In this document: positions 31,038-63,782 of the stretch, one piece after another
Layout: each line of letters starts with the position of its first letter
How positions within the stretch are numbered: position 1 is the first letter of the stretch
NCBI GenBank assembly: GCA_963664815.2
Contig: CAXXHB010000003.1
Location: 2,048,001-2,112,000 of the forward strand
Length of the DNA stretch: 64,000 nucleotides
Direction: 5' to 3'
Source: Spirochaetota bacterium
GTDB lineage: Bacteria; Spirochaetota; UBA4802; UBA5550
Notes under the pieces: generated by a model
What the model was told of the DNA's origin: nothing
The model's input: only the letters and a program-made list of their open reading frames with translations
Database searches by the model: none
Translations under genes and position numbers: made by a program

Positions 31038-32615
31038 ATGGAGTTACCGGGCATGTCACAAAGGAGAATATCGATGAAAAAAATCAGGGAAATCATTCGT
31101 CTTCACGAGCATTCAAAACTCAGCCAAAGGCAGATATCTCAGGCAATGGGAATGTCACGTCCGGTTGTCAGTGATTATATTAACAAAATTAAAACACTCG
31201 GTTTAACTTTTATTGATATAGAAAATATGCCGGATGAAAAACTTCTGAATGTTCTTCAGGGAAATAAAACACCGGACAACAAACGCCATGAAATGCTTCA
31301 AAATCAGTTCCTTCATTTCACGCAGGAGCTCAAACGCCTCGGAGTGACCCGTCAAACTTTATGGGAGGAATACATTCTCGAAAATCCAGGCGGATACAGC
31401 TACTCACAGTTTTGTTATCATTTTCAGGTCTGGCAGAATATGTCAGAAATTACGATGCATATCGAACACAAAGCGGGAGACAAACTCTTTGTGGATTTTG
31501 CCGGTAAGAAACTTTCCATAACAGACCGGTCAACGGGAGAGATAAGAGAGGTTGAAGTATTTGTGGCAATACTTGGGGCAAGCCAGCTTGTTTATATTGA
31601 AGCTTCGATGAGTCAGAAGAAGGAGGAATGGATAAGACTAAATGAAAATGCATTAAGATATATTGGAGGCGTTCCACAGGCCATTGTGCCGGACTGTTTA
31701 AAATCTGCAGTAACAAAGACAGATCGATATGAACCGGATATCAATCCGGAATATCTCGACTTCGCCCGGCATTACGGCATAACAATTCTTCCAGCTCGTC
31801 CGGCAAAACCGAAAGACAAAGCTCTGGTTGAAGGGGCGGTACGAATTTCATATTCATGGATTTACGCTAAACTTCGTGACCGAATATTCTTTTCACTTGA
31901 AGAACTCAATGTCGCGATCATAGAACTGCTTGAAGAATTTAATGCCCGGATAATGCAGCGTCCAGGTGTAAGCAGACGGGAACTTTTTAACAGCATTGAG
32001 AAGAGTGAATTGCAGCCTCTTCCGGCAGATCGTTATGAACTCAAGAGATTTAAAAGTCTTACGGTACAATTCAATTATCACATTTATCTGAGTGATGATA
32101 GTCATTACTATAGCGTACCATATCGCTATAAAGGACGGAAAGTTGACGTATTCTTCACTGAAAGAGCTGTGGAAGTCTACTCGGGCAATGTAAGGATAGC
32201 TTCTCACCTCAGAAACAAGAGAAAAAACGGTTACACGACTGAACGGGTTCATATGCCGGAGTCACACAAATGGGAGGATAACTGGAACCCTGAAAAACTG
32301 ACAGATATGGCAAGCGGTAAAGGAGAAGCTGTGGCAACTGTAATAGAGACGGTTCTTGCATCACGTCAGCATCCGGAGCAGAGTTACAAGACATGCCTCG
32401 GAATAATCGCCCTTGCAAAAACTTACGGAGAGTCCCGTCTTAACCTCGCTTGTGAGCGGGCAATCTATTATGAAAACTGCACATACAAAATGATCAAAAA
32501 CATTCTAAGTAACAACATGGATCAGGCGGGAGAAGAAGACAAATATTCGGAGTTCACTCTGCCTGAGCATGACAATATAAGAGGACGTGAATATTATATG
32601 GAGGAATTACGATGA
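31038..32615 (+). CDS. istA: IS21 transposase
   Basis: N-terminal HTH, HKAGDKLFVDFAG, VPDCLKSAV, PKDKALVE, HDNIRGREYY. Confidence 0.96.
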   Translation: MELPGMSQRRISMKKIREIIRLHEHSKLSQRQISQAMGMSRPVVSDYINKIKTLGLTFIDIENMPDEKLLNVLQGNKTPDNKRHEMLQNQFLHFTQELKRLGVTRQTLWEEYILENPGGYSYSQFCYHFQVWQNMSEITMHIEHKAGDKLFVDFAGKKLSITDRSTGEIREVEVFVAILGASQLVYIEASMSQKKEEWIRLNENALRYIGGVPQAIVPDCLKSAVTKTDRYEPDINPEYLDFARHYGITILPARPAKPKDKALVEGAVRISYSWIYAKLRDRIFFSLEELNVAIIELLEEFNARIMQRPGVSRRELFNSIEKSELQPLPADRYELKRFKSLTVQFNYHIYLSDDSHYYSVPYRYKGRKVDVFFTERAVEVYSGNVRIASHLRNKRKNGYTTERVHMPESHKWEDNWNPEKLTDMASGKGEAVATVIETVLASRQHPEQSYKTCLGIIALAKTYGESRLNLACERAIYYENCTYKMIKNILSNNMDQAGEEDKYSEFTLPEHDNIRGREYYMEELR

Positions 32616-33370
32616 ACAATCAAGCAACAATAGAGAAGATGCAGGAGATGCGTCTTCATGGAATGCTCAGCTCATTCAGGGAAACATTCTCTACCGGGAT
32701 GCAGAATAAATTTACTGCTGATGAAATGGTTGCTCATCTCATCGATGCTGAATGGGACGAGAGGTATAACAGAAAATTTAACACTCTGCTTAAAAGTGCG
32801 GACTTCAGATACAAGTCAAGTATCGAAGAGATCGACTATAAGCCGTCAAGAAAAATTGACAGGAATATGATACTCCGATTTTCGACCTGCGACTGGATCA
32901 TAAAAGGAGAGAGTATTATCATTACCGGATCAACAGGTGCAGGTAAAAGCTTCATGGCCTGTGCACTCGGTCACAAAGCATGTGTTCTTCGTTATCATGT
33001 TGGATACTATAACTGTATGAAATTGTTTTCACATTTGAAGTATTGTAAAGTTGATGGATCATATTTTAAAGAGATGAATAAAATTAAAAAACAGGATTTG
33101 ATAATTCTTGATGACTTCGGATTGAAGCCCTTTGATTCTGACTCGCGATTAATGCTGCTTGAAATGCTTGAAGATCGCCACGGCACCAGATCAATAATTA
33201 TTAGCTCTCAAATCCCCACAGATATGTGGTTTGATCTTATTGGAGATGCGACTATTGCGGATGCTATCTGTGACAGACTTCTTCATACATCACATAAAAT
33301 TGACATCGGTGGGCCCTCAATGAGAAAGGAAAAAGCAAAAAATTCTGGACGAAACCTGCCACCTGAATAA
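32612..33370 (+). CDS. istB: IS21 helper ATPase
   Basis: GSTGAGKS, LIILDDFG, ADAICDRL; ATGA overlap with istA. Confidence 0.96.
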   Translation: MNNQATIEKMQEMRLHGMLSSFRETFSTGMQNKFTADEMVAHLIDAEWDERYNRKFNTLLKSADFRYKSSIEEIDYKPSRKIDRNMILRFSTCDWIIKGESIIITGSTGAGKSFMACALGHKACVLRYHVGYYNCMKLFSHLKYCKVDGSYFKEMNKIKKQDLIILDDFGLKPFDSDSRLMLLEMLEDRHGTRSIIISSQIPTDMWFDLIGDATIADAICDRLLHTSHKIDIGGPSMRKEKAKNSGRNLPPE

Positions 33371-33588
33371 TGGTGATTTAGAAAATGGAAATGGATTAAA
33401 AATGGTAAACTTAAAACCGGAATAGGTGGCAGGTTTCACCGGAATACATATACTAAAAATGTAAAGCCTGCACCTTCCAATTTAAACTGGTTAAATTAGA
33501 ATTGACATACTTATTTTAATTATCAAAAATTATACATAGATCAATAAAACTAAATCCTGATCAGAAATTTTTAAGGAGAAATTATTTA

Positions 33589-34149
33589 ATGAAAAATTTA
33601 AAAACAATTCTATTCATCCTCACATTAACTGCTGTAACAGCCTGTTCATCGCGATATAATTATATCTTAGACCCGACTCCTCTGGTTAAAGGCAAAACTG
33701 CTTACTCTGTGAAGAGTGTGAAAGTAACAATAGTTCAATCCGGTATTAAACTGAATAAAGATGCAGAGGTTAAAGGCTATTTGTCTGAAGCGGATATGGG
33801 AAAAGCATTTCAGGAAAAAATTATCAATGAATTGAAAAATAATAATATTCTTGAAGCCGGCAAAAATGCCGGGTACAATTTATCTATCACTATTAATTAT
33901 AAAAGAAGTTTTGCCGTTAATTCAAATCAGGTAATACACCCGGATTTTTCATACGAATGGGTAATAGAAAAAGATAATAAATCTATCGCTTCATTCAAAA
34001 GCGGAGCTATGACAATGTCCGGATTAAGTCTTGCGGCGGAATTTGCAAGGACTGGCCGTTCAGATATTAATCCACAGGCTGAATTTGAATATATTGAAAA
34101 GATATCAAAAACTATTGTCGAAAAAGACATTATTGATATCGGAAAATAG
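33589..34149 (+). CDS. putative lipoprotein
   Basis: AAGGAG RBS; lipobox VTAC. Confidence 0.75.
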   Translation: MKNLKTILFILTLTAVTACSSRYNYILDPTPLVKGKTAYSVKSVKVTIVQSGIKLNKDAEVKGYLSEADMGKAFQEKIINELKNNNILEAGKNAGYNLSITINYKRSFAVNSNQVIHPDFSYEWVIEKDNKSIASFKSGAMTMSGLSLAAEFARTGRSDINPQAEFEYIEKISKTIVEKDIIDIGK

Positions 34150-34172
34150 TTTTATAATTATCATTTATAAAT

Positions 34173-34210
34173 AGCCGAAAGCCCGCATTGGATAATACGG
34201 GCTTTCGGTA
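34173..34210 (+). terminator. probable terminator hairpin
   Basis: ccgaaagcccg...cgggctttcgg just after the lipoprotein stop. Confidence 0.6.
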
Positions 34211-34235
34211 TACTCTCTCTCCTTTGAACCACATC

Positions 34236-34336
34236 GCATAATTGACGTTAAGCTTTCGCTTCGCACATCTCCGGACTCAACGTATCAGAAATTTTGTCCA
34301 GCTCTCCGGCGCCGTCGCTTAACTATGCAATTATTG
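34236..34336 (+). repeat. attC-like imperfect hairpin, copy 1
   Basis: GCATAAT-tgac-GTTAAGC ... GCTTAAC-tatgca-ATTATTG; homologous to 38112-38212 and 41472-41570. Confidence 0.6.
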
Positions 34337-34470
34337 TATGTATTGTATTGTGATATTGTTACATCTCTGTTAAGTCCCTCTGCAGATGTTTCCGGTTTGG
34401 TTATTGTTATTGTTCCTGCTCCTATTGTGGCCAGGTTTGTCTGTCTGTTGTCTGTGTAGCCGTAGTTTAA
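34335..34470 (-). pseudogene. truncated CdiA anchor-1 fragment (NYGYTDNRQ...SQYNTY)
   Basis: Matches the full-length gene near 52068-52203; breaks at the attC-like hairpin. Confidence 0.85.
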
Positions 34471-34720
34471 GGGCGTGACACTGACGACCTTAAATATCAT
34501 TTGGCGTAATGTTTTACGCCCCTAAATGTTGTTAATATTTTTTATTATATAATAAATGATTATTTCACATTCGTCAGTTCCGGGCTTTCCGTTTGTATAA
34601 AACGGCCAATCTGTTGATTTCTATTTACTCTTTATTGATTGCCGTTTTATATCGCTGCAATCCCTCACGCGGTGTGCTTTTATATTGTTGGTTTTCAAGG
34701 AACTTAAGTCATTAGTTGAT
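34465..34720 (-). repeat. spacer A copy (REP doublet plus Flavo-1-like structured element)
   Basis: Near-identical to 39035-39272, 43235-43500 and 61671-61935. Confidence 0.9.
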
Positions 34721-34817
34721 AAATTAAAAAAGTACTACTCACAAATTATATTTTCTATAGTTGGACTTTAGCGAAATTCCGTGACTTGTTGTGTTAATTG
34801 ATTCACATTAAAACTTT

Positions 34818-35129
34818 TTATTTTACTTTTATCAAGTTAATTATAGCACTAATCGCCAAATAAGAAAAAAATATTATTAACAACAATGCCAATATGTCTT
34901 CATAATTAGTAAACTTTCGAGAACCCAACATTAAAATTATAATAATTGCAAATAATTTATTATACCATTTTGTTTCAACAATAGGAGCTTTTTCAATTTT
35001 TTCAATTTTTAACAAATCACCTTTTTTTTTTGCATTAAAAAATTTTATAAAAAACAAAATAAGTGTAATAATCATCGAAAAAAATAAAACTACCTCTGAT
35101 ACTAACAATATATTTTTTAAACTAATCAT
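34818..35129 (-). CDS. putative membrane immunity protein (duplicate of 62024-62335)
   Basis: Identical 103-aa translation; overlaps the stop of the upstream tip fragment. Confidence 0.75.
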   Translation of the reverse strand: MISLKNILLVSEVVLFFSMIITLILFFIKFFNAKKKGDLLKIEKIEKAPIVETKWYNKLFAIIIILMLGSRKFTNYEDILALLLIIFFSYLAISAIINLIKVK

Positions 35130-35401
35130 TTAACTTGTATCTTTGCACTGACTCAATATACTTTTGCTGTTCAGCTTGTATCAGTGCTTCCGTTCCTTTT
35201 ACAATTTTATAATTATAAACTGGTGTACTAGTAATTGGTTTACTTAATGTAGCTGAAAAATTTGATGTTGAACCACCAGTTTGTATCGAAAAATATTTAT
35301 CTCCAAAATCAATTTCTCCAGGAATATGGTTATATGTAGCACTTAACGAACCAGGATTTCCATTCCCATATCCGAATCCAACAACTCCAGTAACCCACGC
35401 G
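35122..35401 (-). pseudogene. toxin-tip fragment duplicated from 62328-62607
   Basis: Near-identical nucleotide sequence; 5'-truncated at CCCTATG. Confidence 0.8.
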
Positions 35402-35664
35402 CCCTATGCTATATGGGGAACTTTCTGTGAAAGTGAACTGAGCTATTGTATGTATCAACATCTGCCTGTACACAATCACATGAAAAAGATTTTTACGGAT
35501 ATCTGGAGAAAGAGATATTTTTTTTAATATATCAACGAATTTTTTTATACTAACATTTTAATTCCGAATTTATACTCGTATAATCATTAATCAGCGTTCC
35601 TTAATTGGTACACTTCTGTTTAATTTACATTGTTTGTGGCACCGTAAGTAGCAGTATATAATGT

Positions 35665-35976
35665 TTATAATAACTTTCGACTATTTATAATATCATCTAT
35701 AACATTTATACTCCAAAATTTTACTTCTTCAAATGTTGCTTTTAATTCATTATGATGGTAAATAAAAAATTCAATTACATCAAACAAATTATCCTCATAA
35801 TAAAAATCTAACACTACTTCAGAAGTATAACTATTATCATCTGAGTATGTTCTTTTTATTTCTATATTGCCAAATGTCAGACCTACTCTTTTAATTTCTT
35901 CTTTTTTCTGTATCAAGATCTGATTTAGCAAATATATATATTCATTTTCTATATTTAAAATATCTTTATCTTTCAT
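35665..35976 (-). CDS. putative immunity protein
   Basis: Small acidic ORF overlapping the toxin stop. Confidence 0.7.
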   Translation of the reverse strand: MKDKDILNIENEYIYLLNQILIQKKEEIKRVGLTFGNIEIKRTYSDDNSYTSEVVLDFYYEDNLFDVIEFFIYHHNELKATFEEVKFWSINVIDDIINSRKLL

Positions 35977-36679
35977 CTTTTTTATCTATTTTCGGATATT
36001 CAACCCATTCATCTGGAAAACTTTTTACTGTTCCATATTTTCCAACATAATCTTGTTGTTGATGAATAATTTCACCATCTTTTTCTACTTGGTGAGTTTT
36101 AGAAATAGTAGTACCATTTTCTTTCTCTATTATATGTTTCGAAGTTGCACCATCACCACCTAAACTTTTTCTAACTATTTCTTCTTTTGTGATTATACTT
36201 TCGCTGTTTTTAACAACATCCTCAGTCCCATTAATAGCTTTTTCGATTCCAGCTTTAGCTTCCCTTCCTACTAATCCACTGGATGCAGTTGTCACATCTC
36301 CTAAACTTATATGTTCAGGTATATTGTCAGCTGCTTCCTTAAACACTACACCTAAAGCTAAATTGAATGCCTGCTTCAACGTACTATCAGAATTTCCGGC
36401 ATTTGCAATCGATTCAATCGAACTTTCAGTTAATTTGTCTTTAACTATACGTAATAGTTTTGCATCAGGAGAATTGGAATCAGTATTATCAATCCCCATT
36501 GTATTAACTGTTCCCGAAAGATTGACAACATTATTTGCTATCTCATTTCCCTGCTGTATCTCCGCATCTCTTAAACTTGAATTTACCGCCAGTTGCTTAG
36601 CATAGGCTATCTCCGCCCTTTCCTCCGCAAACCTAACTTTAATTGCATGTGCCGCATCAGGATCAATTTCTTTAAGCAC
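35966..36679 (-). CDS. orphan CdiA-CT cassette, unassigned His-rich tip
   Basis: Shared block AYAKQLAVNSS...AADNIPEHIS, then unique tip GGDGATSKH..KTHQV..IHQ..FPDEW. Confidence 0.8.
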   Translation of the reverse strand: MLKEIDPDAAHAIKVRFAEERAEIAYAKQLAVNSSLRDAEIQQGNEIANNVVNLSGTVNTMGIDNTDSNSPDAKLLRIVKDKLTESSIESIANAGNSDSTLKQAFNLALGVVFKEAADNIPEHISLGDVTTASSGLVGREAKAGIEKAINGTEDVVKNSESIITKEEIVRKSLGGDGATSKHIIEKENGTTISKTHQVEKDGEIIHQQQDYVGKYGTVKSFPDEWVEYPKIDKKDER

Positions 36680-36940
36680 ATAGGGTCACGCGGGGTGTTA
36701 TTATATTGATGGTTTTCAAAGAACTTAAGTTATTAGTGGATAAATCAAAAAGTACTATTTACAAATCCCATTTTCTATAATCGAACTTCCTGCTGCTCTT
36801 CAGGACTCAGTTTTTCTCCGACAGCTTTTTTTAACTCATAATAATCAAGCTTCTCCTGCGCACTTACCGGTTCCCCGTTTTCAACCTTCTTCGCGTACTT
36901 ATCCATTGTCTGGTATGATGATACATTTAATTTTATTAAT

Positions 36941-37162
36941 TCATCTAATAAAACCTAATTTTATTGTCAGTGTAAAAATTAAAAATAGAAAACTAATAAT
37001 TACTAAAAGTTTTTCAGTAATTTTTATTTCTCTTTCACTAAAGTTAAAACCCATTTTTTTATTCTGATCTAATATTATTTTTTTTGCTATTTTTTTATTA
37101 AAGATAAGTACAATTATAAAAAATATTAATGCTAATATAAAGGATAGATTATTCGTAACCAT
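36941..37162 (-). CDS. small membrane protein, putative immunity
   Basis: 73 aa with two TM helices, after a degraded tip. Confidence 0.55.
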   Translation of the reverse strand: MVTNNLSFILALIFFIIVLIFNKKIAKKIILDQNKKMGFNFSEREIKITEKLLVIISFLFLIFTLTIKLGFIR

Positions 37163-37731
37163 TTATTTTTTACCATAATTAACAGATGGTTTATTTAAAA
37201 TGTTAGTAATAGGATTAAATATATAATATCCAGTTACAGAAACCCCAGCAGGTGCTCCAAATCCAAGTTCTCCAAACTTCCATTATTTTGGAAACTATAA
37301 CCGGTTTGACCAGCTACAACATTCTGTGCTTGCAAACCAACATTAAATCCGCTACTTGCTTCTGAGGTTGAAATAGTTAAAGCACCACTAACACCGGGTG
37401 TTACCAAACCTACGCCTAAATATGGATATAGATTACCATTATTACTTAAAATTTAACCACCAGTTATACCTCCAATATATCCACCAGAAATATTTAAATC
37501 TATATATCCATTTTTAGAAGATGATATTATTTTCTTACTATAAGTTGTATTTTCTGTATCACCTCCCATTTCAAGAGGATAAGCCAATTCCGGTCTATTT
37601 TCAAAAGCCTGTAATGGTTTAACAATCAATTCTCCCGAAGATAAAACATTGATTAAATTTCCATCTTCACTTATAATGCTGAATCCCTTCAATGATCTTA
37701 CATCTTCAATTCCATTCTTTTCTAAATCCAC
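37163..37731 (-). pseudogene. degraded Gly-rich toxin tip
   Basis: ORF 37453-37731 followed by interrupted Gly-rich frames up to the immunity gene. Confidence 0.55.
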
Positions 37732-37741
37732 ATTATATTCT

Positions 37742-37978
37742 TCAAGTTACATCTGAATCTTTATTAAGCCCAAACTCCCCGACGTCAATCAGGTTACCAG
37801 TCTTTTCTATTGTTGTTTCAATTTCCTTATCTACCTTCTTCGCTGTTTTCTCTGCTTCAGTTAATCCACTTTCCAATGCATCTACTGTATCATATATAGT
37901 CTTTTCCCTGTCTTTTATCAGTGCTACTGTTGCGGTATCTACCGTAACTCCGCTTTTCAGTCCTCCGCTGTATGTATT
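37742..37978 (-). pseudogene. CdiA anchor-1 fragment (NTYSGGLKSGVTVD...)
   Basis: Matches the full-length gene; joined directly to spacer B. Confidence 0.8.
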
Positions 37979-38212
37979 AACATCTGCCTGCGCACAATCC
38001 TGCAATAGCGATTTTTCCGGTATATAACAGAAAAAAATTACTTTCAAAGATCAATAATTAACTGATTCAGAGTTATAGAACAGATCAATAAAATGTCAAC
38101 ATGTCCACTCAACATAATTATTTCTGGACGTTCACTACGCACATCGCCGGACTTATCGAACCAGAAACTTTATACATCCACCGGCGACGTCGGTCTAGCT
38201 ACTCAATTATGC
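37979..38212 (-). repeat. spacer B copy (GCAGATGTT end, promoter, attC-like hairpin)
   Basis: Homologous to 41338-41570; partial copies at 45506, 63699 and 35457. Confidence 0.88.
38072..38099 (-). promoter_or_regulatory. sigma70-like promoter facing into the orphan cassette
   Basis: TTGACA-N16-TATAAC; equivalents at 41432-41459 (TTGATA-N16-TATAAT) and 45599-45626. Confidence 0.6.
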
Positions 38213-38241
38213 AACATGGGGAGTTATTAATTATAGATCGA

Positions 38242-38562
38242 TCAATAAAACTTATAAACAATACCTATAATAAACCAGTAAAATAGGTAACCACATAAAC
38301 TGATAAAGAATATTAAAAAATGATCTACTTTTCGTTTTTCATTCAGTAAGACCAACCCGACAGTTAGACCAAAAATAAAAAATCGCCACTTCACCGCGAC
38401 GAAAAAAGAGACTACAGGATAGGATTGAAGATTGTATATTTGAAAATAATCTTCAAGCCACCATTTATAAGCGAAACTTAAATGAAACGCAACTATGGCA
38501 AAATAGCTGAACAACAATACTAAAGTTAAGATAATTGTTAATGATTTATTTATTCTATCCAT
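38242..38562 (-). CDS. orphan membrane protein, putative immunity
   Basis: Three TM helices, AT-rich, within the array. Confidence 0.6.
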   Translation of the reverse strand: MDRINKSLTIILTLVLLFSYFAIVAFHLSFAYKWWLEDYFQIYNLQSYPVVSFFVAVKWRFFIFGLTVGLVLLNEKRKVDHFLIFFISLCGYLFYWFIIGIVYKFY

Positions 38563-38584
38563 AATTCTCTTTGTTGCTGTTTTT

Positions 38585-38998
38585 TTAATTATACACCAAA
38601 TAAGGACGGAATATAACTGTTAAAAATACACCGGACATTAATATTGCGTTTATCCAAAAATGTAATTTAAAATGATTAATCACTATACTCTTCTCATGCA
38701 AAATAACGAGTAGTATATACATTATTAACAATATAAGACCTATATGGTCTGTTGAACACCACCGAGAACTAAAATATTGTATTTTTTCATAAGTACTTCC
38801 GGGGTATATTAATTCATAGTATTTATTTTTAAAAAAATAAGGCAACATAATGTAATCAAATAAATCAAAACAATCAATAATTATCACTGATATATAAATA
38901 ATAATTGGTGATATTTTAAACAGTCTTACTAAATTATTCACTATCGTACTTCCAATCTTTTTGGCTTGCTTTGTCATAATATGGATACGGACGACCAT
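38585..38998 (-). CDS. orphan membrane protein, putative immunity
   Basis: Three TM helices; LLVILHEK resembles LVLLNEK of the neighbouring ORF. Confidence 0.55.
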   Translation of the reverse strand: MVVRIHIMTKQAKKIGSTIVNNLVRLFKISPIIIYISVIIIDCFDLFDYIMLPYFFKNKYYELIYPGSTYEKIQYFSSRWCSTDHIGLILLIMYILLVILHEKSIVINHFKLHFWINAILMSGVFLTVIFRPYLVYN

Positions 38999-39034
38999 TA
39001 TTTTTATCTTGAATACTGTTATCTGTGTAGCCGT

Positions 39035-39272
39035 AGTTTATGGGCGTGACACTGACGATCTTGAATATCATTTGTCGTAATGCATTACGCCTTTTCATGT
39101 TGTTATTATTTATAATAAATAAATGTTTATTTCACATTCGTCAGGTCCGGGCTTTCCGCTTGTATAAAACGGCCAATCTGTTGATTTTCATTTAACTATT
39201 TATTGATTGCCGTTTTATATCGCTGCAATCCCTCACGCGGTGTGACATTAAATTGTTGGTTTTTAAGGAACT
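39035..39272 (-). repeat. spacer A copy
   Basis: Same REP doublet and Flavo-1-like core; only about 25 bp of anchor-1 remains next to it. Confidence 0.88.
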
Positions 39273-39403
39273 GAATTAAATGCTTATAAATAATAACAGA
39301 GAATATAAATAAAATTAAATCTTTCGTACAATATAATCGAATTCCAAACTTGTGCATCAGGAAATATTTATTTAAATTTACTTAATGTTTATATATAATT
39401 AAA

Positions 39404-40009
39404 TCAAATTAACTCAACCTCTTCAAAAGAGTACCCCGTAAATCTATTATCTTCAAATATTTTTTTAAATTTTCCCGATACAAAATATCTTAGATCATAA
39501 TCTTTTAAACGAATAATATCAAAATTTTCCAATTTATCTTTATTCAATACAAATTTTTTAACACCTGATATTTTACCTCTTACATTAGCGTTTGGAAAAT
39601 CATTACTGAATCTATCATATTCTGATTTTTTATAATCTAATGCTTCAATAAAATTAAGTAAATTTACAATGCAGAAACCATCTATAATGGAATTATCAGA
39701 TTTCATAACATTTATTTTCAAATATTGTATACCAGTAGTATTACTATTTTTTAAAACATTTATTAATTTTTCAGAATAAATTGGAATACCAAGATAATTT
39801 TGTAAAACATCATCTGGATCTCCATCATTTTTTTTCTTTTTCGATTGAAATATTATTGATTCATTCCAATTTTTAATTTCCTCTCCTTTTATAAAATCCC
39901 ATTTAGAAAAATTATACTTTTCTAAATTTGAATAATCACAAACTAAAGGATTTTTTACAGTATTATCGCATTCATACAGTTTAAACCATTTCATACTATT
40001 TAATCCCAC
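39404..40009 (-). CDS. immunity protein (Imm11/Imm43, DUF1629-like)
   Basis: PIYSEKL, IVNLLNFIEALD, FVSGKFKKIFEDNRFTGYSF pattern; follows an AHH toxin. Confidence 0.75.
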   Translation of the reverse strand: MGLNSMKWFKLYECDNTVKNPLVCDYSNLEKYNFSKWDFIKGEEIKNWNESIIFQSKKKKNDGDPDDVLQNYLGIPIYSEKLINVLKNSNTTGIQYLKINVMKSDNSIIDGFCIVNLLNFIEALDYKKSEYDRFSNDFPNANVRGKISGVKKFVLNKDKLENFDIIRLKDYDLRYFVSGKFKKIFEDNRFTGYSFEEVELI

Positions 40010-40550
40010 CTTTATATGGTATTCTCGGATTATTGATTAATTCTGTTTTCAAATCTATTAAAACTTGTTTTAACGCTTTGTTTGCATCATCTCCAGACAA
40101 TCCTCTTGTAGCATTATCTAATTTATCGAGTACATATTCTTTATATTTAACTGTGTGTCCACCAGAATGATTTTCTAAAAATACTTTATTTGCATCATCA
40201 TCTAAAGTCATACCTGCATTATTAAAAATATTTTCGAATTGTTCTATATATCCACTTTTTATTGCTTTATCTGATGCAATATGGTGGATTTCTCCCTTAA
40301 CAATTTTTTCAACTCCACTTTCTATTTCATTAGCATGCTCAGCAATCTCCTCAGACCCTTTTACTGCAAGTTTTTCTATACTACTTGCATGCTCAATTAC
40401 TTCTTCTCCTATTTCTTCAACTACTTTCCCCGTCCCTCCAATTGGTATAATAGGGAGAATAATAGCAGCGGCAGCAAAGCCTTTTTCTGTATCTGTTACT
40501 TCCTCACCATACTGATTTTTACCTGTAGCTAAAGTGTTAGCACCTATCAC
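39996..40550 (-). CDS. orphan toxin: pre-toxin TG-like segment plus AHH (HNH-family) nuclease
   Basis: ATGKNQYGEE..; IHHI...LDDDANKVFLENHSGGH...Y. Confidence 0.8.
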   Translation of the reverse strand: MIGANTLATGKNQYGEEVTDTEKGFAAAAIILPIIPIGGTGKVVEEIGEEVIEHASSIEKLAVKGSEEIAEHANEIESGVEKIVKGEIHHIASDKAIKSGYIEQFENIFNNAGMTLDDDANKVFLENHSGGHTVKYKEYVLDKLDNATRGLSGDDANKALKQVLIDLKTELINNPRIPYKGGIK

Positions 40551-40632
40551 AGCTCCAAATAAAACATCATCTACACCACCGCAAATTGCCTGAGCGCGGG
40601 ATGATTCTCAACAAAATTTGCATTACCTTGAT

Positions 40633-41337
40633 TTATCTCGTCACATTTTTTTCAAATGATACTTTTAATTGATTCAAATATGAAGGAGGTCCTAACCGTG
40701 GCACAACTCCATTCCCTTCAGTGGTACCCAATTCATTTGCTTTCTCTGTACCAGCACTTAAATAATCCGCATTTGAATCATTCCAGCTGTTGATTTTAAA
40801 ATCTGGTGACGATGTAGTTGAATCTGTTGAAGCTGTTTCCGAAAACCTGTTCCATAAATTTCCTGCCTGCTCTCCACGTGAAGATGCAAGTGTAAGCTGC
40901 TGTCCTGCATCAAGGTCCAGCCCATTAGTAGTGTTATCCTTCCTCTGGGCTTCCCAGAAGAGTGATGTAATAATATCTCCACCCTTTGATATATCTGTTC
41001 CTTCGGTATTCAGATATGTTTCATTATTATTCTGGTCATATGCTGCTGCATATCCATTCATCGCGTTATCTGTTTCATCACCCTGATACAGATTTACATG
41101 AGATATTTTATCATCCTTAACTCCATCGCTGCTCTGAACAGTTTCAGAAACCTTATTAACCGCTTCTTTTAATGATGCCGCATCTTTATCAAGTGCATTA
41201 TCGAGTTTTTCAGCTAAAGCCTTGTTCTCTGCCAGGGCTGCTATTGTTAATACATCCTTACGGGCATTAATTACAGCCTCGAGTGTACCCGCGAATCCAA
41301 GACCTTCTTTAGCTTTGGCAGTTTCTGTTGCCTCTTC
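40633..41337 (-). pseudogene. anchor-2 fragment with truncated tip
   Basis: Near-identical to 44870-45505 and 63200-63698. Confidence 0.8.
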
Positions 41338-41570
41338 AACATCTGCCCGTATACAATCCTGAGAAAACGGTTTTTCACTGTATATAATATAAAAAAATTA
41401 CTTTCAAAGATCAATAATTAACTGATTCAGAATTATAGAACAGATCAATAAAATATCAATATGTCAACTCAACATAATTATTGCCAGATGTTCACTACAC
41501 ACTTCGCCGACTCGATGTATCAGAAACTTTATCCAACCACCGGCGACGTAATCAAGCTACTCAATTATTG
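41338..41570 (-). repeat. spacer B copy
   Basis: AACATCTG start, promoter, hairpin 41472-41570. Confidence 0.88.
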
Positions 41571-41644
41571 CAAAATGAGAAACTTTTCTGGAATTGTTTT
41601 CCATTACTCACCCAGTGTTGAAGAATTTTTTTGTTCAATATTTA

Positions 41645-42253
41645 CTATAAGTTGTTACTCTTTTTATTTTTCCAGAATATGTATCTAAATATTGGATTTT
41701 CGCCATTTTCATTGAGAGAGATATCAAATATAGATTTGATTAATCTTGAATCAATATCTTTTTTCCCCGTACTAATATTTACATTTAGTGTAAAAGGTAT
41801 ACTATCAACTTCAAAATCATAATATATATCAATGGCCCCGCCATCAACTTTAATTTTAGCAGGTTTATTAATGTCTACATTTTTAAGAATATTTCCTTTA
41901 TAAAAATTAAGAAATTCATGAAATGTTTTGTTAAGTTTACCTTTATCCGACTTAATTACAAAATAAGTTTCTCCCCATCCTTTTTCTAAAAGATTGTTTT
42001 TATAACAATAATCAAGAAATTCCTTATATGAAATATCACCTGAATTTCCTTGGAATATCGGAATCATTAACCGCTTCCCGTTCTTTTCATAAATAAGATT
42101 AGAGAATTTTATTATAAATTCAGATTTACTAAATTCCTGTACATCGCCCTTTTTTATTTTATCATTTGTTTCACTTACGGCATTCATATAATTACAGTTT
42201 AAAATTATAATCATACATATTAAACAGACAATTCTATTTGTTTTTAATTCCAT
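41645..42253 (-). CDS. putative exported/lipoprotein immunity protein
   Basis: AGGAG RBS; hydrophobic N-terminus with ILNC. Confidence 0.65.
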   Translation of the reverse strand: MELKTNRIVCLICMIIILNCNYMNAVSETNDKIKKGDVQEFSKSEFIIKFSNLIYEKNGKRLMIPIFQGNSGDISYKEFLDYCYKNNLLEKGWGETYFVIKSDKGKLNKTFHEFLNFYKGNILKNVDINKPAKIKVDGGAIDIYYDFEVDSIPFTLNVNISTGKKDIDSRLIKSIFDISLNENGENPIFRYIFWKNKKSNNL

Positions 42254-42349
42254 TTCTACTTCACTCCTTATTTTTTATTTGCAGCTATATTACTATTTTT
42301 CTTTATAGGTAAATAACTTGAAACAGGTATAATCTCTTTTGTTACTTTT

Positions 42350-45505: not shown

Positions 45506-45740
45506 AACATCTGCCCGTATACAATCCTGAGAAAACGGTTTTTCCGGTATATAACAGAAAAAAAATTACTTTCAAAGATCAATAATTAACTGATTAGTGT
45601 TATAGAACACAAAATTATAATGTCAATATAACATTTGCTATAACCATAACAGCCATTACTCAAACAGTGTCGAATGAAGGTACTTTTTGTAAACTTAACA
45701 ACTATACCAACCAATAACTCCCAGTTATTGATCTACGGTT

Positions 45741-46640: not shown

Positions 46641-47048
46641 TTATAATTTATCAATTTCCATTTCAGAAAAAAATAAATGAAATGGAACTTTTTCTTTAGA
46701 CCAATAATCTACAACAGTTAACCAACTTTCTATTAATTTACCAGCTGTCATCGGACATCTTTGCCATATTTTTTTTGAATTAAGTATAACTAATATCAAT
46801 CCCTCTTTTAATTCAAGCCAGTCAAGATCTCGTAGGCATTCATCCAATGCATCCCAATTTTTCCCAAAATAATCAGGAAATTTCATTACATTTGCAATTG
46901 AATTAAATAGATCTTTATCATTTTCTATAGAATTATTATCAATTATTAAAATATTAAAATTATTATAATTCTCTTTTAAATAATTATTTATATTATCAGT
47001 TGTAAAATGAATACAGTCATACAAATATTTTTCTAATTTATTTATCAT
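46641..47048 (-). CDS. barstar-family immunity protein
   Basis: FPDYFGKNWDALDECLRDL. Confidence 0.92.
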   Translation of the reverse strand: MINKLEKYLYDCIHFTTDNINNYLKENYNNFNILIIDNNSIENDKDLFNSIANVMKFPDYFGKNWDALDECLRDLDWLELKEGLILVILNSKKIWQRCPMTAGKLIESWLTVVDYWSKEKVPFHLFFSEMEIDKL

Positions 47049-47050
47049 TT

Positions 47051-49822
47051 TTATTTTTTCTTTGGATTTATTTGTATAAAATTTTCATAGTGGTCATCAG
47101 TATAATATGTATTACCACTATTTTGATCTACTAAAATTCTACGAGTTCCTCTATTAGATGCGCCTGGTGTATTAACTGTATATTCTCTATAATCACCATC
47201 AGCTGGTAATTTTTTTTTGTCATTTCTAAAAAGAGTTCCATCTTTTTTATAACAAAAGTTATCTCCTTGCTCAATTCTATCAAGAGTTTTATTAATTTCA
47301 GTCAAGCGATCTGAATCTTTAAATGGAAGATTTCTTTCCACAAGGTTAGCAGCATCTTCCGTTTCATTAACAATTTGTTTTTCTACCTTTCCAAAAACAT
47401 TTCCTGCAGCTTCAGAAAGCCCTACGTCAGCAACACTTATATGTTCAGGTATATTGTCTGCTGCTTCCTTAAACACTACACCTAAAGCTAAATTGAATGC
47501 CTGCTTCAACGTACTATCAGAATTTCCAGCGTCTGCAATTGATTCAATCGAGTTTTCAGTTAATTTGTCTTTAACTATACGTAATAGTTTTGCATCAGGA
47601 GAATTGGAATCAGTATTATCAATCCCCATTGTATTAACTGTTCCAGAAAGATTGACAACATTATTTGCTATCTCATTTCCCTGCTGTATCTCCGCATCTC
47701 TTAAACTTGAATTTACCGCCAGCTGCTTAGCATAAGCTATCTCCGCCCTTTCCTCCGCAAACCTAACTTTAATTGCATATGCCGCATCAGGATCAAGCTT
47801 TTCAAGCAGCGCTATCTTGGCATTTATTACCAGTGCACCATCTTTTGTATATGTGTCAAGAATATCCTGCTTCAGATTATTTGCTACTTCTTTGGTTCTT
47901 TCTTTAATTGCATTCTTTTTATCGCACTGTTCTTCATCTGTCAATGGTTCTCCGACAGCTTTTTTTAACTCATAATAATCAAGCTTCTCCTGCGCACTTA
48001 CAGGTTTCCCGTTTTCAACCTTCTTCTCGTATTCATCCATTGTCTGGTATGATGATACATTTTTATTTTCTGTATAGTGGTCAAATTTTAACAGGTTCTC
48101 AGTCTTCTCTATTGTTGTTTCAATTTCCTTATCTATCTTATCTGCTGTTTTATCTGCTTCTTTTAATCCATCTTTCAATGCATCCACTGTATTATTTAAA
48201 GTCTTTTCCCTGTCGTTTATCAGTTCTACTGTCGCCGTATCTACCGTAACTCCGCCTTTCAGTCCTCCGCTGTATGTATTGTATTGTGATATTGTTACAT
48301 CTCTGTTAAGTCCCTCTTCCGATGTTTCCGGTTTGGTTATTGTTATTGTTCCTGCTCCTATTGTTGCCAGGTTTGTCTGTCTGTTGTCTGTGTAGCCGTA
48401 GTTTAAGCTTGAACTGTACGTATTTTCTGTTGGTTTGAAGCTGCCGCCTGCGCTTCCACCTGCATTGAAAGATACGTCCTTGTCCTTTATGTTGCTGAAC
48501 TCGAGGCTTCCGGTTGTAAGTGTCAGGTTATCTGTTGTTGATGCTATTACTGCACCTTTAAGGGTTGTCTTGTCTTCAACGTCTACGTTTACTGTCCCGC
48601 CGGTTAGGGATGTCTGTTCTGTTACCCAGCTTTTCTTCCCCGTGGAGAAGTTTGCGTTTACTCCGGCATTTCCCGATACGTTTTCGCCTGTTACACTTAC
48701 TCCACCGCTTGCGCCTATGGTCTGCGAGCTGTTTTTGCTCTTATCCTGCAGTGATTGTACCACAAGGGAGCCGTTTACATCAAGGTCAAGTTCGTTTTTC
48801 GCCTTTACCACTCCGCCGATTACGGTTGTGTCTTCGCTGCTCTTTATTTTTATGTTGTTTCCGCTTAAATGTGCGTTGGTATATGTTTTGCTTTCGCTAT
48901 CTGTCTCCGTGCTGTCTGCTGATGCATTAACTCCAATTGCTCCCGATGTTCCGAAACTTACCTTCATGTTGGCATGTTTCTTATCTTCGCTGCTGCTCTC
49001 TCTGTTCTCCGCCGCGCTTATCTCCACATTCTCTGCGTCAAGGGTTATATCCTCACCGGCTGCCACGCTGCTCCCCTTTACCTCCGCTTTGCTCCCCGCT
49101 GTTACGGTAAAGCTCCCTCCGGTTTTTATTGTCGATGCCTTTGCAGTTGTGCTTTCCGATGTCGATTTTGTTTTTGTGGCGTCTATTTCAAACTGGGCAT
49201 CTCCGCTGAAGCCGAATGTCTCTGCAGATCCCGCCGCCCCCGCTGCGCTTTGCAGCAGTGCCGCTGTCTTTGCTACCACGTTCTCCCCGCAGAGCGCTAT
49301 ATTCGCAATGTAAAAGGCCTCCTGCTCTCTTATTGAATCCAGATCATCCTGGTCTATAAGGTTGTTTTTATGGTCATCTTCCGCTTTCTTCAGGCTCTCC
49401 CTGTATTTCTCATAATCATTCTTTGCCTTTACAACTGCTTCCTTTGCCTCTACCAATGCCTTTGTTGCGTATGCCACATCAGTTGCGGCATTCTTTCCAC
49501 CCACTGAAAATTCCACGCTTCCGTGAGTCTCTTCTGCTGTATGGCTTGTCTTCTCTTCTGTTGTCTTTATACTTACGTTTTCTGCCGCCGTAAGGGTTAC
49601 ATCTCCACCGGCATTTATCTCAGATCCAGCTACTGTTATATTCTTTCCGCTGTTTACCGTAAGGTCTTCCGATACATTAAGTTTGGATGAGCTCTGTGTC
49701 TCCCTGTCTGTCCTCTCCTTTACACTGTCGTAGCTCCCCCCTGCAAGCGTTACAGAAGCTCTCCCCTGGTCATAGTCAAAGGCGTTTTTGGGGTTGGTAA
49801 ACAGGTCCATGTTTATCCCCAT
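47051..49822 (-). CDS. large orphan CdiA fragment with RNase Sa/barnase-like tip
   Basis: About 600 aa near-identical to the full-length gene; tip DGTLFRN..LP..YREYTV..RGTRRI..YYTDDHY. Confidence 0.9.
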   Translation of the reverse strand: MGINMDLFTNPKNAFDYDQGRASVTLAGGSYDSVKERTDRETQSSSKLNVSEDLTVNSGKNITVAGSEINAGGDVTLTAAENVSIKTTEEKTSHTAEETHGSVEFSVGGKNAATDVAYATKALVEAKEAVVKAKNDYEKYRESLKKAEDDHKNNLIDQDDLDSIREQEAFYIANIALCGENVVAKTAALLQSAAGAAGSAETFGFSGDAQFEIDATKTKSTSESTTAKASTIKTGGSFTVTAGSKAEVKGSSVAAGEDITLDAENVEISAAENRESSSEDKKHANMKVSFGTSGAIGVNASADSTETDSESKTYTNAHLSGNNIKIKSSEDTTVIGGVVKAKNELDLDVNGSLVVQSLQDKSKNSSQTIGASGGVSVTGENVSGNAGVNANFSTGKKSWVTEQTSLTGGTVNVDVEDKTTLKGAVIASTTDNLTLTTGSLEFSNIKDKDVSFNAGGSAGGSFKPTENTYSSSLNYGYTDNRQTNLATIGAGTITITKPETSEEGLNRDVTISQYNTYSGGLKGGVTVDTATVELINDREKTLNNTVDALKDGLKEADKTADKIDKEIETTIEKTENLLKFDHYTENKNVSSYQTMDEYEKKVENGKPVSAQEKLDYYELKKAVGEPLTDEEQCDKKNAIKERTKEVANNLKQDILDTYTKDGALVINAKIALLEKLDPDAAYAIKVRFAEERAEIAYAKQLAVNSSLRDAEIQQGNEIANNVVNLSGTVNTMGIDNTDSNSPDAKLLRIVKDKLTENSIESIADAGNSDSTLKQAFNLALGVVFKEAADNIPEHISVADVGLSEAAGNVFGKVEKQIVNETEDAANLVERNLPFKDSDRLTEINKTLDRIEQGDNFCYKKDGTLFRNDKKKLPADGDYREYTVNTPGASNRGTRRILVDQNSGNTYYTDDHYENFIQINPKKK

Positions 49823-49850: not shown

Positions 49851-49932
49851 ATTATGGGCGTGACACTGACGATTTAAATTGTCATGGGCGTAATGTTTTA
49901 CGCCCATACATGTTGTTAATATTTTTTATTAT
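49851..49932 (-). repeat. partial spacer A (REP doublet only)
   Basis: GGGCGTGACAC...GGGCGTAATGTTTTACGCCCATAC joined to a different point of the toxin gene. Confidence 0.85.
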
Positions 49933-50847: not shown

Positions 50848-53800
50848 TTATTCGGATAAATATCCCTTAGTATTTCCGATATTTCGTGTATAAGTAGGAT
50901 AATATCCTCCTGATGACCAACCCAGGCCAGTACCGAAATCAACGCCTATAGTTTTTCCTGAATATGATCTTTCGTAATTAACTGAAGCTGAAGTGCCTGG
51001 AATAGATAAGGTATAATTATTAGAAAATTGAAGCATATCATCATATGCATTATTCATATTTTCAATTTTTTCGCCCTGTGTTGTTTTCATTGTCTCATAA
51101 ACACCTGCAGATTGCACATATGCAACTGGATAATCAGTAGTTTTATCAGAAATTAAGTCTTGATTACCAACAACAGCAGTAGCATTATATGTAGCATAAC
51201 CCATACTATCAACAGAATTAAGTGCATCATGAATAAGGTTTCCTACTAATGGCCCAACAACTGGCATTGTTACTGTATAAGATAAACCTATCACTTGTTT
51301 TATTAATGAATCTTGGCTATTATCGACCTGCAACATAACTCCTCCTTCAATTCCTCCACTCAAAGCCATTCCTGGTCTTCCATATGTTGCATTAGCACCA
51401 ATTCCATATGTTTTATAAACTATTGATTTTTGATTATCTTCTTCTTGCTGTTCAACTATTTCTCTAATATTTGTAAGTGTTTGCATTGACTGGTTATAAA
51501 TTTCATCAGAACTATCTTTCGCCTGAGCTAAATTATTCGCCGCCCTCTCCTTCGCGAACTTAACCTCAATCGCATGTGCCGCATCAGGGTCAATCTCTTT
51601 AAGCAGCGCTATCTTGGCATTTATTACAACCGCAGTATCTTTCGTATATGTATCAAGAATATCCTTTGACAGACTATTTGATAGCTCCTGCTTTACAGTT
51701 TTGTAAGCATTCAGCATATCCATCTGCTCATCGGGGCTCAGTGCTTCTCCGACAAGGTTTTTTGATCCGTAATATGCAAGTGTCTCTGATGCACTTACAG
51801 GTTTCCCGTTTTCAACCTTCTTCTCGTATTCATCCATTGTCTGGAATGATGATACATTTTTATCTTCTGTATAGTGGTCAAATTTTAACAGGTTCTCAGT
51901 CTTCTCAATTGTTGTTTCAATTTCCTTATCTACCTTCTTCGCTGTTTTCTCTGCTTCAGTTAATCCACTTTCCAATGCACCCACTGTATCATATATAGTC
52001 TTTTCCCTGTCTTTTATCAGTTCTACTGTTGCGGTATCTACCGTAACTCCGCCTTTCAGTCCTCCGCTGTATGTATTGTATTGTGATATTGTTACATCTC
52101 TGTTAAGTCCCTCTGCCGATGTTTCCGGTTTGGTTATTGTTATTGTTCCTGCTCCTATTGTGGCCAGGTTTGTCTGTCTGTTGTCTGTGTAGCCGTAGTT
52201 TAAGCTTGAACTGTACGTATTTTCTGTTGGTTTGAAGCTGCCGCTTGCGCTTCCACCTGCATTGAAAGATACGTCCTTGTCCTTTATGTTGCTGAACTCA
52301 AGGCTTCCGGTTGTAAGTGTCAGGTTATCTGTTGTTGATGCTATTACTGCCCCTCTTAGGGTTGTCTTGTCTTCAACGTCTACGTTTACTGTCCCGCCGG
52401 TTAGGGATGTCTGTTCTGTTACCCAGCTTTTCTTCCCCGTGGAGAAGTTTGCGTTTACTCCGGCATTTCCCGATACGTTTTCGCCTGTTACACTTACTCC
52501 CCCGCTTGCGCCTATGGTCTGCGAGCTGTTTTTACTTTTATCCTGCAGTGATTGTACCACAAGGGAACCATTTACATCAAGGTCAAGCTCGTTTTTCGCC
52601 TTTACCACTCCGCCGATTACTGTTGTGTCTTCGCTGCTCTTTATTTTTATGTTGTTTCCGCTTAAATGTGCGTTGGTATATGTTTTGCTTTCGCTATCTG
52701 TCTCCGTGCTGTCTGCTGATGCATTAACTCCAATTGCTCCCGATGTTCCGAAACTTACCTTCATGTTGGCATGTTTCTTATCTTCGCTGCTGCTCTCTCT
52801 GTTCTCCGCCGCGCTTATCTCCACATTCTCTGCGTCAAGGGTTATATCCTCACCGGCTGCCACGCTGCTCCCCTTTACCTCCGCTTTGCTCCCCGCTGTT
52901 ACAGTAAAGCTCCCTCCGGTTTTTATTGTCGATGCCTTTGCAGTTGTGCTTTCCGATGTCGATTTTGTTTTTGTGGCGTCTATTTCAAACTGGGCATCTC
53001 CGCTGAAGCCGAATGTCCCTGCAGATCCCGCCGCCCCCGCTGCGCTTTGCAGCAGCGCTGCTGTCTTTGCAACCACGTTCTCCCCGCAGAGCGCTATATT
53101 CGCAATGTAAAAGGCCTCCTGCTCTCTTATCGAATCCAGATCATCCTGGTCTATAAGGTTGTTTTTATGGTCATCTTCCGCTTTCTTCAGGCTCTCCCTG
53201 TATTTCTCATAATCATTCTTTGCCTTTACAACTGCTTCCTTTGCCTCTACCAGAGCCTTTGTTGCGTATGCCACATCCGTTGCGGCATTCTTGCCCCCAA
53301 ACGAAAATTCCACGCTTCCGTGAGTCTCTTCTGCTGTATGGCTTGTCTTCTCTTCTGTTGTCTTTATACTTACGTTTTCTGCCGCCGTAAGGGTTACATC
53401 TCCACCGGTATTTATCTCAGATCCAGCTACTGTTATATTCTTTCCGCTGTTTACCGTAAGGTCTTCCGATACATTAAGTTTTGATGAGCTCTGTGTCTCC
53501 CTGTCTGTCCTCTCCTTTACACTGTCGTAGCTCCCCCCTGCAAGCGTTACTGACGCTCTCCCCTGGTCATAGTCAAAGGCGTTTTTGGGGTTGGTAAACA
53601 GGTCCATGTTTATCCCCATTGTGGTCTTTTCATGGATGCTGTATTCGTAGCTTGTCTCTTTTGCGCTTGTTTCTGTAAAACTGCCGGTTGTGTCAAATTC
53701 CGCAATGCCGGCGTTTATGGCGCTCCCCTCCATCAGAAAATCGCCGCCTGTGGATGCTTTAAGTTTTCCGGCAGTTATTGCAGATCCCGCGGCTGTTGTT

Positions 53801-63698: not shown

Positions 63699-63782
63699 AA
63701 CATCTGCCCGTATACAATCCTGAGAAAACGGTTTTTCACTGTATATAATATAAAAAAATTACTTTCAAAGATCAATAATTAA
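63699..63782 (-). repeat. partial spacer B, interrupted
   Basis: Matches 41338-41421, then homology stops abruptly. Confidence 0.8.

Follow-up and report, generated by a model that had tools for sequence, protein, structure and literature searches.

The stretch of DNA considered here, hereafter the window, comprises 64,000 nucleotides of contig CAXXHB010000003.1 (positions 2,048,001 to 2,112,000) from a Spirochaetota bacterium (assembly GCA_963664815.2; 5.2 Mb in 3 contigs, 38% G+C), and carries on its minus strand an array of toxin and immunity genes punctuated by copies of an imperfect hairpin, the subject of this study. The array lies downstream of a full-length CdiA-like exoprotein gene of the two-partner secretion (TPS) type at 50848..57768 (-), which encodes 2306 aa with a TPS domain and haemagglutinin repeats (Fil_haemagg_2). 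The orphan toxins that follow are homologous to the pretoxin region of this exoprotein, an arrangement that is typical of contact-dependent inhibition (CDI)/TPS orphan arrays, with a full-length exoprotein gene followed by orphan C-terminal toxin (CT) and immunity pairs that repeat its pretoxin region; pretoxin matches number 12 in the genome. Two cassettes can be named from their products, an AHH nuclease toxin (39996-40550, -) with an Imm11 immunity partner (39404-40009, -), together spanning 39404..40550, and an orphan with a barnase-type ribonuclease CT (47051-49822, -) with a barstar-type immunity partner (46641-47048, -), together spanning 46641..49822.

Three hairpin copies are found in the window, all on the minus strand. 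Copy 1 (34213..34356, 117.7 bits) is the terminal copy at the end of the array, copy 2 (38089..38232, 140.7 bits) begins 9 nt past the stop of an open reading frame (ORF) at 38242-38562, and copy 3 (41449..41591, 132.1 bits) begins 53 nt past the stop of an ORF at 41645-42253, with copies 2 and 3 each followed on the gene strand by a leader sequence. A preliminary description of the locus had claimed that three homologous hairpins punctuate a toxin cassette array, each with an outer inverted repeat, a pair of L boxes that differ between copies yet stay complementary and an inner CCGG stem. Their homology is borne out by alignment A1 (mean column identity 78%), and the outer repeat CATAATT...AATTAT, the 7-nt L-box pair and the CCGG-containing stem are common to all three; the hairpin does sit between toxin-immunity cassettes and, in relatives, between toxin-antitoxin (TA) cassettes too. 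The complementarity of the L boxes holds for copy 1 (GTTAAGC/GCTTAAC, 7/7 paired) but not fully for copy 2 (5 Watson-Crick pairs, 1 G-T and 1 mismatch) or copy 3 (5/7). It was also claimed that homology stops at the right-hand core, which is true of copy 1 alone, as copies 2, 3 and most others share 10-16 further nt (GCAAYATGGGGAAC); the 'flank' ATGGGGAAC is conserved because it forms the lower part of the outer stem in intact relatives. The cut in the orphan toxin fragment MIFK...QYNTY, which had been described, does fall at 34336/34337, exactly at the outer core of copy 1. As single-stranded DNA the window copies do not fold better than dinucleotide shuffles on either strand (z for copies 1, 2 and 3 of +0.71, -1.27 and +0.14 on the plus strand and -0.56, -1.18 and -0.02 on the minus strand), and they are worn members of the hairpin family.

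A hairpin family in toxin arrays

A search of the genome with BLAST and a covariance model recovered 10 copies, six of them in two neighbouring arrays on the contig that holds the window (C3) and four in one array on the second replicon (C2), with all 10 inside these three TPS/CdiA-like toxin arrays. On the gene strand the hairpin lies 9-99 nt from the stop of the preceding ORF, insertion sequence (IS) genes aside, in 9 of the 10 copies, the tenth being copy 1, which follows a truncated toxin stub. Across the family the hairpin is imperfect and 125-145 nt long, and its orientation relative to the genes is fixed, with its start 0-200 nt beyond the last sense-strand ORF.

The covariance model R1, derived from 18 copies, was run on 64 genomes of the same Spirochaetota family and has matches in 13 of them, spread over 5 of 25 genera (E up to 0.01). 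Across the order, at E up to 1e-4, 12 of 122 genomes have a match, two of which belong to a second (sister) family represented by 12 genomes; with BLAST the hairpin is found in 4 of 7 congeners. A pattern scan of genome contigs gave 2 loci, and of 11 loci in metagenome contigs 5 were true copies (3 new sequences) and the other 6 chance matches. In Rfam the window at the gathering threshold gave only 2 tRNAs, and six loci with intact copies gave no match to the hairpin at E up to 1. The plasmid and phage collections that were searched had no match to an intact hairpin, the literature that was searched had no description of such an element, and the hairpin family is previously undescribed.

Copies outside this genome number 31, and the genes beside the hairpin were surveyed for all but one, which lies at the first base of its contig. 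A sense-strand frame of at least 60 aa ends between -25 and +200 nt before the hairpin in 27 of these 30 copies, a raw count taken without a chance control. The 66 neighbour frames listed by script were reduced by 8 that were short, overlapping or duplicate and joined by 2 others, and of the resulting 60 sent to Pfam 18 match type II TA families (ParE, HicA/HicB, BrnT/BrnA, PIN, HEPN/MNT) and a further 8 match repeat or DUF families (ankyrin, leucine-rich repeat (LRR), DUF3467), which we take to be immunity-type neighbours. Units from hairpin to hairpin measure ~0.7-4.3 kb in this genome and in three relatives (G084, G005 and G087). The pretoxin query does not track the hairpin, matching 9 of 64 family genomes of which 4 are hairpin-bearing. 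Each hairpin closes a toxin-immunity cassette in one Spirochaetota order, and in relatives TA cassettes as well. The complete genome of one congener (G006) has as its sole hairpin trace a decayed relic of 50 bits (locus L100, G006:C1, 9759-9894). Some 1.6 kb away is an OmpA-family gene, which stands right beside the terminal hairpin in another congener; this suggests that the relic is an old array site after loss of its cassettes.

Structure, covariation and the folding strand

With the three window copies alone, or with the 18 closest copies, covariation is weak and RNAalifold keeps only 5 pairs, and in the 18 close copies 80.7% of cells are paired against 18-38% in slid controls, with 9 of 500 shuffles reaching the covariation score. 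The covariation that had been read from the window copies becomes strong with 40-41 copies from other genera. In alignment A4, fitted to the model with 41 copies, the covariation score is 0.277 against 0.119 shuffled (reached by 0 of 500) and 0.024-0.067 slid, and 19 of 24 pairs have changed on both sides. Alignment A5 was made independently with MAFFT on 40 of the 41 copies, a single copy containing N being left out, and gives 0.198 against 0.116 shuffled (again 0/500) and 0.044-0.072 slid, with 71.2% of cells paired against 27.6-39.5% slid; pairing in its L box reaches 81.3%, and changes on both sides are seen at 6 of the 7 pairs. As the copies are related the shuffles overstate significance, yet the slid controls retain this relatedness and are still far under the observed score. 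Seven distinct L-box variants are fully complementary, in 16 of the 40 copies: GTTAAGC/GCTTAAC, GCTAGAC/GTCTAGC, GCAGCCC/GGGCTGC, GGCAGGC/GCCTGCC, GCTATAC/GTATAGC, GCTATGC/GCATAGC and GCTATAT/ATATAGC. The hairpin is a real structure that is maintained by compensatory change.

In intact copies the outer stem reaches 18 bp (CCCCACATCGCATAATTG with CAATTATKCGATATGGGG), and predicted folds place an asymmetric internal loop between it and the L box. Intact relatives form one long hairpin (fold z -2.8 to -6.3), and there are two subfamilies that have the outer stem and L box in common and differ in the inner stem-loop. Several unpaired motifs are conserved across genera, namely GUAG in the internal loop, a GCGAAC bulge and a AAGUUUCUGAUAC loop. 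Within the first 30 nt of the sense strand every frame is stopped in 19 of 40 copies, compared with 1.6 expected from mononucleotide shuffles, and two or more frames are stopped in 38 of 40; an example of a triple-frame stop is CATAATTGAGTAG (e.g. window 38232-38200, minus strand), and the unpaired conserved GUAG belongs to one such stop.

When both strands of four intact relatives were folded the sense RNA was more stable than the antisense by 1.1, 9.0, 10.9 and 7.7 kcal/mol, with z of -3.2 to -6.3, and the minus (gene-sense) strand also gives the more stable fold in all three window copies. Counted over helices that are present, the plus strand shows A·C 75 times and G·T 23 times, and each such A·C reads as G·U or G·T on the sense strand; the excess comes mostly from two majority-state positions (14/18 and 22/30) plus a third at 12/29. 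In the predicted folds the gene-sense strand is the better-folding one.

Leaders and flanking signals

A leader of ~125 nt, with promoter-like TTGACA/TTGATA-N16-TATAAC/T, lies 3' of 7 hairpin copies on the gene strand, and 2 more leaders have no hairpin. The leader after copy 2 (37979..38102, -) has TTGACA-N16-TATAAC and leads into the next orphan toxin, its frame ...SLLQDCAQADV continuing into NTYSGGLK. That after copy 3 (41338..41462, -) has TTGATA-16-TATAAT at 41459-41432, the best promoter match (11/12) within 33500-46500, a region in which promoter-like sites overall are not more frequent than in shuffles; its frame ...SQDCIRADV enters a second toxin family (EEATETAKAKEGL...), so that the open frame of the leader (...SQDC.(R/Q)ADV) enters either of two toxin families. 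The leaders without a hairpin lie at 45506..45629 (-), upstream of the orphan toxin at 44261-45340, and, as a partial copy, at 63699..63782 (-), upstream of the orphan toxin at 62328-63533. In the relatives searched by BLAST the leader is absent except for two weak partial matches. Just past copy 1 on the gene strand is a canonical, bidirectional stem of 15 pairs resembling an intrinsic terminator (34175..34208).

Junctions and rearrangements

The cut at copy 1 is the edge of a duplication. A segment of 1,065-1,067 bp at 34337..35401 (-), comprising the 3' part of a toxin gene, a 103-aa ORF and the MIFK..NTY stub, is a 98.2% identical duplicate of 61541-62607 and has lodged between the upstream core of copy 1 and the displaced upstream flank of the same hairpin (TATGCTATATGGGGAACTTTCTGTGAAAGTGAACTGAGC..., 35402..35450, -), to which it is joined through 3-4 filler bases, with 2 nt of shared bases at its other end. 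This junction is an illegitimate join. The downstream arm of the hairpin has been lost in 9 of 41 copies and the upstream arm in 0 of 41. At least 2 of the losses are bounded by the direct repeat CACATCGC, of which the hairpin has two internal copies, a pattern expected from slippage. One LRR-immunity cassette has three different hairpin subtypes 3' of it in three genomes. Taken over the family, junctions occur at both cores and within the hairpin and not at a single fixed core position; the view that rearrangements break at the hairpin core fits the break at 34336/34337 and does not fit the scattered junctions, the filler bases or the slippage-like losses within the hairpin.

Logan contigs from four sequencing runs covering 33400-46600 are short unitigs that break at repeats and are too short to reveal strain differences, and their joints 38222>35422, 41535>38181 and 41442>41542 are accounted for by paralogous copies. 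The sequencing runs listed for the stretch include none of RNA.

A proposed cassette 3'-end module in the transcript

The reading that we favour, with a probability of about 0.45 judged from sequence, is that the hairpin is a 3'-end module of the cassette which acts in the transcript and which also provides a block of homology and instability for the shuffling of cassettes. It is with such a module that the features of the sense strand fit best: the position after an ORF, the wobble pairs, the stops, the promoter that follows and the terminator past the last copy. Acting in cis, the hairpin would stop translation in any frame, its stable stem-loop might then protect or end the toxin-immunity message, and the same stem-loop would separate that message from the promoter of the next cassette. 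Being the one non-coding block that is conserved from one variable cassette to the next, the hairpin could also supply homology, and its long, slippage-prone palindrome might create fragile points, with RecA-type, slippage or illegitimate events at the hairpin shuffling, truncating or duplicating cassettes.

There are several points that weigh against a role in the transcript. A general element of mRNA ends would be expected to follow other genes too, and the hairpin is seen only with mobile cassettes of toxin, immunity and TA genes. Its flanks diverge more between genera than it does itself, which would fit an element that travels with cassettes or moves them. It has no U-tract and so is not a classical terminator; nor are the window copies among the 9 terminator-like sites of 33500-46500. 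Away from the two majority-state positions the strand bias is 39 to 23, or a near even 27 to 23 without the third, and in single-stranded DNA, too, it is this strand that a G·T pair would favour. Finally, the conservation of unpaired motifs suggests that the hairpin is bound by a specific partner. The confinement to mobile cassettes and the conservation across genera leave a role at the level of DNA open.

Is the hairpin a recombination site?

The DNA-level role that the preliminary description put forward was that of a variant integron attC site, served in trans by a tyrosine recombinase. According to the available text of Loot et al. 2017 (PMC5371416), attC sites are characterised by paired R and L boxes, an unpaired spacer, extrahelical bases and folding of the bottom strand. 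The likeness in layout is considerable: both are imperfect hairpins at the 3' end of a cassette, with a conserved outer (R) box, an L box that is free in sequence and kept paired by structure, an unpaired central spacer between the boxes, a variable terminal structure and a stop codon in the first box, and both occur in arrays rich in TA genes. The differences lie in what the integrase would recognise and in the cassettes themselves. The outer cores are (G)CATAATTG / CAATTATG(C) and not RYYYAAC/GTTRRRY with AAC/GTT, extrahelical L-box bases are absent both from the 16 of 40 copies with 7/7 Watson-Crick L boxes and from the predicted folds, and it is the sense strand that folds better. There is no IntI and no attI platform here, cassettes have two genes and often their own promoter, and junctions are imprecise. 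In our reading the hairpin is not an integron attC site; what has survived of the proposal is a real, covarying hairpin of attC-like layout.

The search for an integrase was negative for IntI only. The best match in the genome to the IntI model TIGR02249 reaches 220.7 bits against a cut-off of 265, with the IntI-specific profile positions 180-234 unmatched, and none of the 5 other hairpin-bearing genomes has a protein over this cut-off. No IntI passes the cut-off in any of the six. Tyrosine recombinases of other kinds are present: PF00589 has 9 matches in the genome, none of them on C2 and none within 100 kb of the C3 arrays. The protein that best matches TIGR02249 passes the XerA-type model NF040815 ('tyrosine recombinase/integron integrase') with 235 bits against 220, and its gene, ~110 kb from the C3 arrays, is the nearest tyrosine recombinase to them. 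No repeat or hairpin array lies beside it, and homologues occur in 51 of 64 family genomes regardless of hairpins, which are found in 13 of 64. Neither Y1 (IS200/IS605-type) transposases nor serine recombinases were found in the genome. Elsewhere on C3 there is a ~1-kb repeat (G000:C3:1973915-1974970, outside the window) with more than 25 copies of 78-91% identity, three of which adjoin XerA-like recombinase genes or fragments (C3:1972139, 3590287 and 3696569).

Among the five other hairpin genomes only G084 has a recombinase on the same contig as a hairpin, which is the case for 2 of ~14 hairpin contigs, many of them short. Two loci of G084 have tyrosine recombinase genes, forming a trio, at 1-5 kb from hairpin cassettes; at L097 (G084:C16, 17380-19924) two genes with recombinase motifs follow a 239-aa ORF, and at L099 (G084:C11, 153-1109) one tyrosine recombinase gene is found at the cut start of the contig. 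By their layout these tandem genes resemble what we take to be a 'recombinase in trio' element, of which there is none in this genome.

An integron-like site of another kind may still be imagined, in which the hairpin folded in single-stranded DNA is cut and joined at its outer core by a tyrosine recombinase other than IntI, either a Xer/XerA-like enzyme in trans or, in some genomes, a neighbouring recombinase, so that toxin-immunity and TA cassettes are captured, excised and reordered. We consider this doubtful. In its favour are the attC-like layout, down to the asymmetric internal loop and the two alternative tips, the arrays of hairpin-bounded cassettes with lengths of 0.7-3.9 kb, the share of type II TA neighbours, as in chromosomal integrons, the single toxin-immunity pair with three hairpin subtypes, the breaks at outer cores (34336/34337 and the leader junction at CAATTATG), the recombinase that passes NF040815 and the trio in G084, and the folding strand is probably the lagging-strand template on both replicons. 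These points are set against the missing IntI, the distance of any recombinase from the chromosomal arrays and its absence from the second replicon, a XerA-like gene distributed without regard to hairpins, the few hairpin contigs with a recombinase, cores and L boxes that depart from those of attC, the better folding of the sense and not the bottom strand, and breakpoints that are scattered, one with filler, with arm losses at least some of which lie at the direct repeat. Phrased as a whole, the claim of a new integron-like gene-capture system in Spirochaetota, in which sense-strand AATTAT-core hairpins and a non-IntI tyrosine recombinase would build toxin/TA arrays behind TPS/CdiA genes, is unlikely.

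Other explanations

It is rather unlikely that the hairpin is a selfish or neutral palindrome, akin to a miniature inverted-repeat transposable element (MITE) or an enterobacterial repetitive intergenic consensus (ERIC) element, which hitch-hikes with the cassettes and whose arms are alike through hairpin-templated repair or gene conversion. Templated repair in quasi-palindromes yields multi-base compensatory switches, and the L-box switches resemble its products. Two C2 copies are perfect (24/24 pairs) and other copies are decayed, the 9 one-armed copies are readily seen as such decay, and the window copies fold no better than shuffles. Yet the element is not dispersed, its termini being found nowhere else in the genome, its orientation to the genes is fixed, two mismatch positions have been conserved and not homogenised, the unpaired motifs are kept across genera and a Y1-type transposase was not found. 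A MITE was rejected on the restriction of the terminal motifs, and a dispersed palindromic repeat of the repetitive extragenic palindrome (REP), ERIC or Correia type on there being 10 matches, all in the three toxin arrays.

A double-stranded operator or protein-binding platform for the leader promoter just downstream is highly improbable: the hairpin ends ~10 nt before the leader -35 hexamer in 6 of 10 copies (a seventh, damaged copy, C2_472, has lost that stretch) and its sequence has dyad symmetry, but the hairpin is kept in terminal copies and in all copies of the other genomes searched, which lack the leader, and L boxes that covary, are free in sequence and lie 60-100 nt from each other speak for pairing within the molecule and not for two half-sites. 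A small share of the probability falls to explanations of other kinds. Coding sequence was rejected on indels between copies that are not multiples of three and on stops in all frames, and a dif or IMEX (Xer-exploiting mobile element) site on the position of the arrays away from the skew extremes, the distance to the GC-skew maximum being 170-215 kb on C3 and that to the skew minimum ~100 kb on C2. A candidate dif at C3:1935217-1935245, outside the window and picked out with a generic pattern, has both a XerD-like gene (1.943 Mb) and the peak of cumulative GC skew (1.91 Mb) close by, and only a short AT-rich core is common to it and the hairpin box.

Other features of the arrays

Members of the second toxin family (MGEAVNKVSETVQSSDGVKDD..., with variable C-termini) lie at 40633-41061, 44261-45340 and 62328-63533 and have their leader in common with the CdiA-type orphans; the family is without a Pfam match and without a full-length parent gene in the window. 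Upstream of the 'MIFK...' and 'MGINMD...' orphans stands a second junction element (49852-49933, 43237-43319, 34467-34549 and 39038-39128), consisting of a small perfect stem-loop, GGGCGTAA-AACA-TTACGCCC, then ...ATCGTCAGTGTCACGCCC, joined to differing points of the cdiA coding sequence, with RNA fold z of -2.9 and -3.6. An intergenic block of 88 nt recurs with 94-95% identity at 34618-34705, 39185-39272, 43388-43474, 46437-46524 and 61824-61910, and also on C2; the single copy that was folded, within 46420-46540, has a z of +0.33, which is not significant.

Insertion sequences are found in and around the arrays. An IS21-family element (IstA-like and IstB; 31038..33370, +) adjoins the array end, IS66-like fragments lie at 58643-59244 upstream of the full-length TPS gene, and a complete IS66 (orf1, TnpB_IS66, DDE_Tnp_IS66) lies within the C2 array (L052, 9022-11317).

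Comparison with known systems

Orphan cdiA-CT/cdiI modules downstream of CDI loci were reportedly described by Poole et al. in 2011, and the arrays share with them tandem toxin-immunity pairs that begin with a repeat of the main gene's pretoxin region; they differ in the structured hairpin between modules, none being described for those systems in the literature searched. Clusters of attC sites without an integrase (CALIN) are said to have been described by Cury et al. in 2016.

ERIC elements, also termed intergenic repeat units (IRU), REP and the neisserial Correia elements are imperfect palindromes of ~100-130 nt in transcribed intergenic DNA, where folding of the mRNA alters its stability or processing. 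They are dispersed genome-wide in tens to hundreds of copies, and Correia elements also carry promoters. The present hairpin, in contrast, covaries strongly, keeps a fixed orientation and occurs in 10 copies, all within toxin arrays. The attP of the CTX phage is a folded single-stranded site that is recombined by XerCD, and the dif modules of Acinetobacter plasmids are Xer-dependent and often carry TA genes. These too are hairpins of ~100-150 nt, or paired inverted sites, for housekeeping-type tyrosine recombinases, but the arrays here lie away from the replication terminus and the L box is not conserved in sequence.

The rAID-1 clusters of gut Bacteroidales are arrays of orphan immunity and toxin-fragment genes with repetitive, integron-reminiscent intergenic sequences, as far as the available text of Ross et al. 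(bioRxiv 10.1101/471110) describes them, and the likeness to the arrays here lies in both the gene content and the repetitive intergenic sequences. In that text rAID-1 clusters are defined by a 5' XerD-like recombinase gene, and the hairpin arrays have no adjoining recombinase and are attached to full-length TPS/CdiA-like genes.

Significance for toxin arrays

To our knowledge orphan toxin-immunity arrays are thought to diversify through homologous recombination alone, and we know of no determinants of their boundaries. Here a conserved, covarying hairpin is found at the ends of the modules across several genera of one order, and at the ends of TA modules likewise, with the covariance model R1 providing a handle for finding such arrays elsewhere. 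Integrons within this phylum are reported only from Treponema in the available text of PMC3607928, and if the integron-like reading were true it would add site-specific exchange of cassettes to the homologous recombination model of toxin diversification. If the hairpin acts as DNA it would offer a second, integrase-independent route to cassette arrays, and if it acts as RNA it would be a portable 'end module' that secures the expression of the immunity gene.

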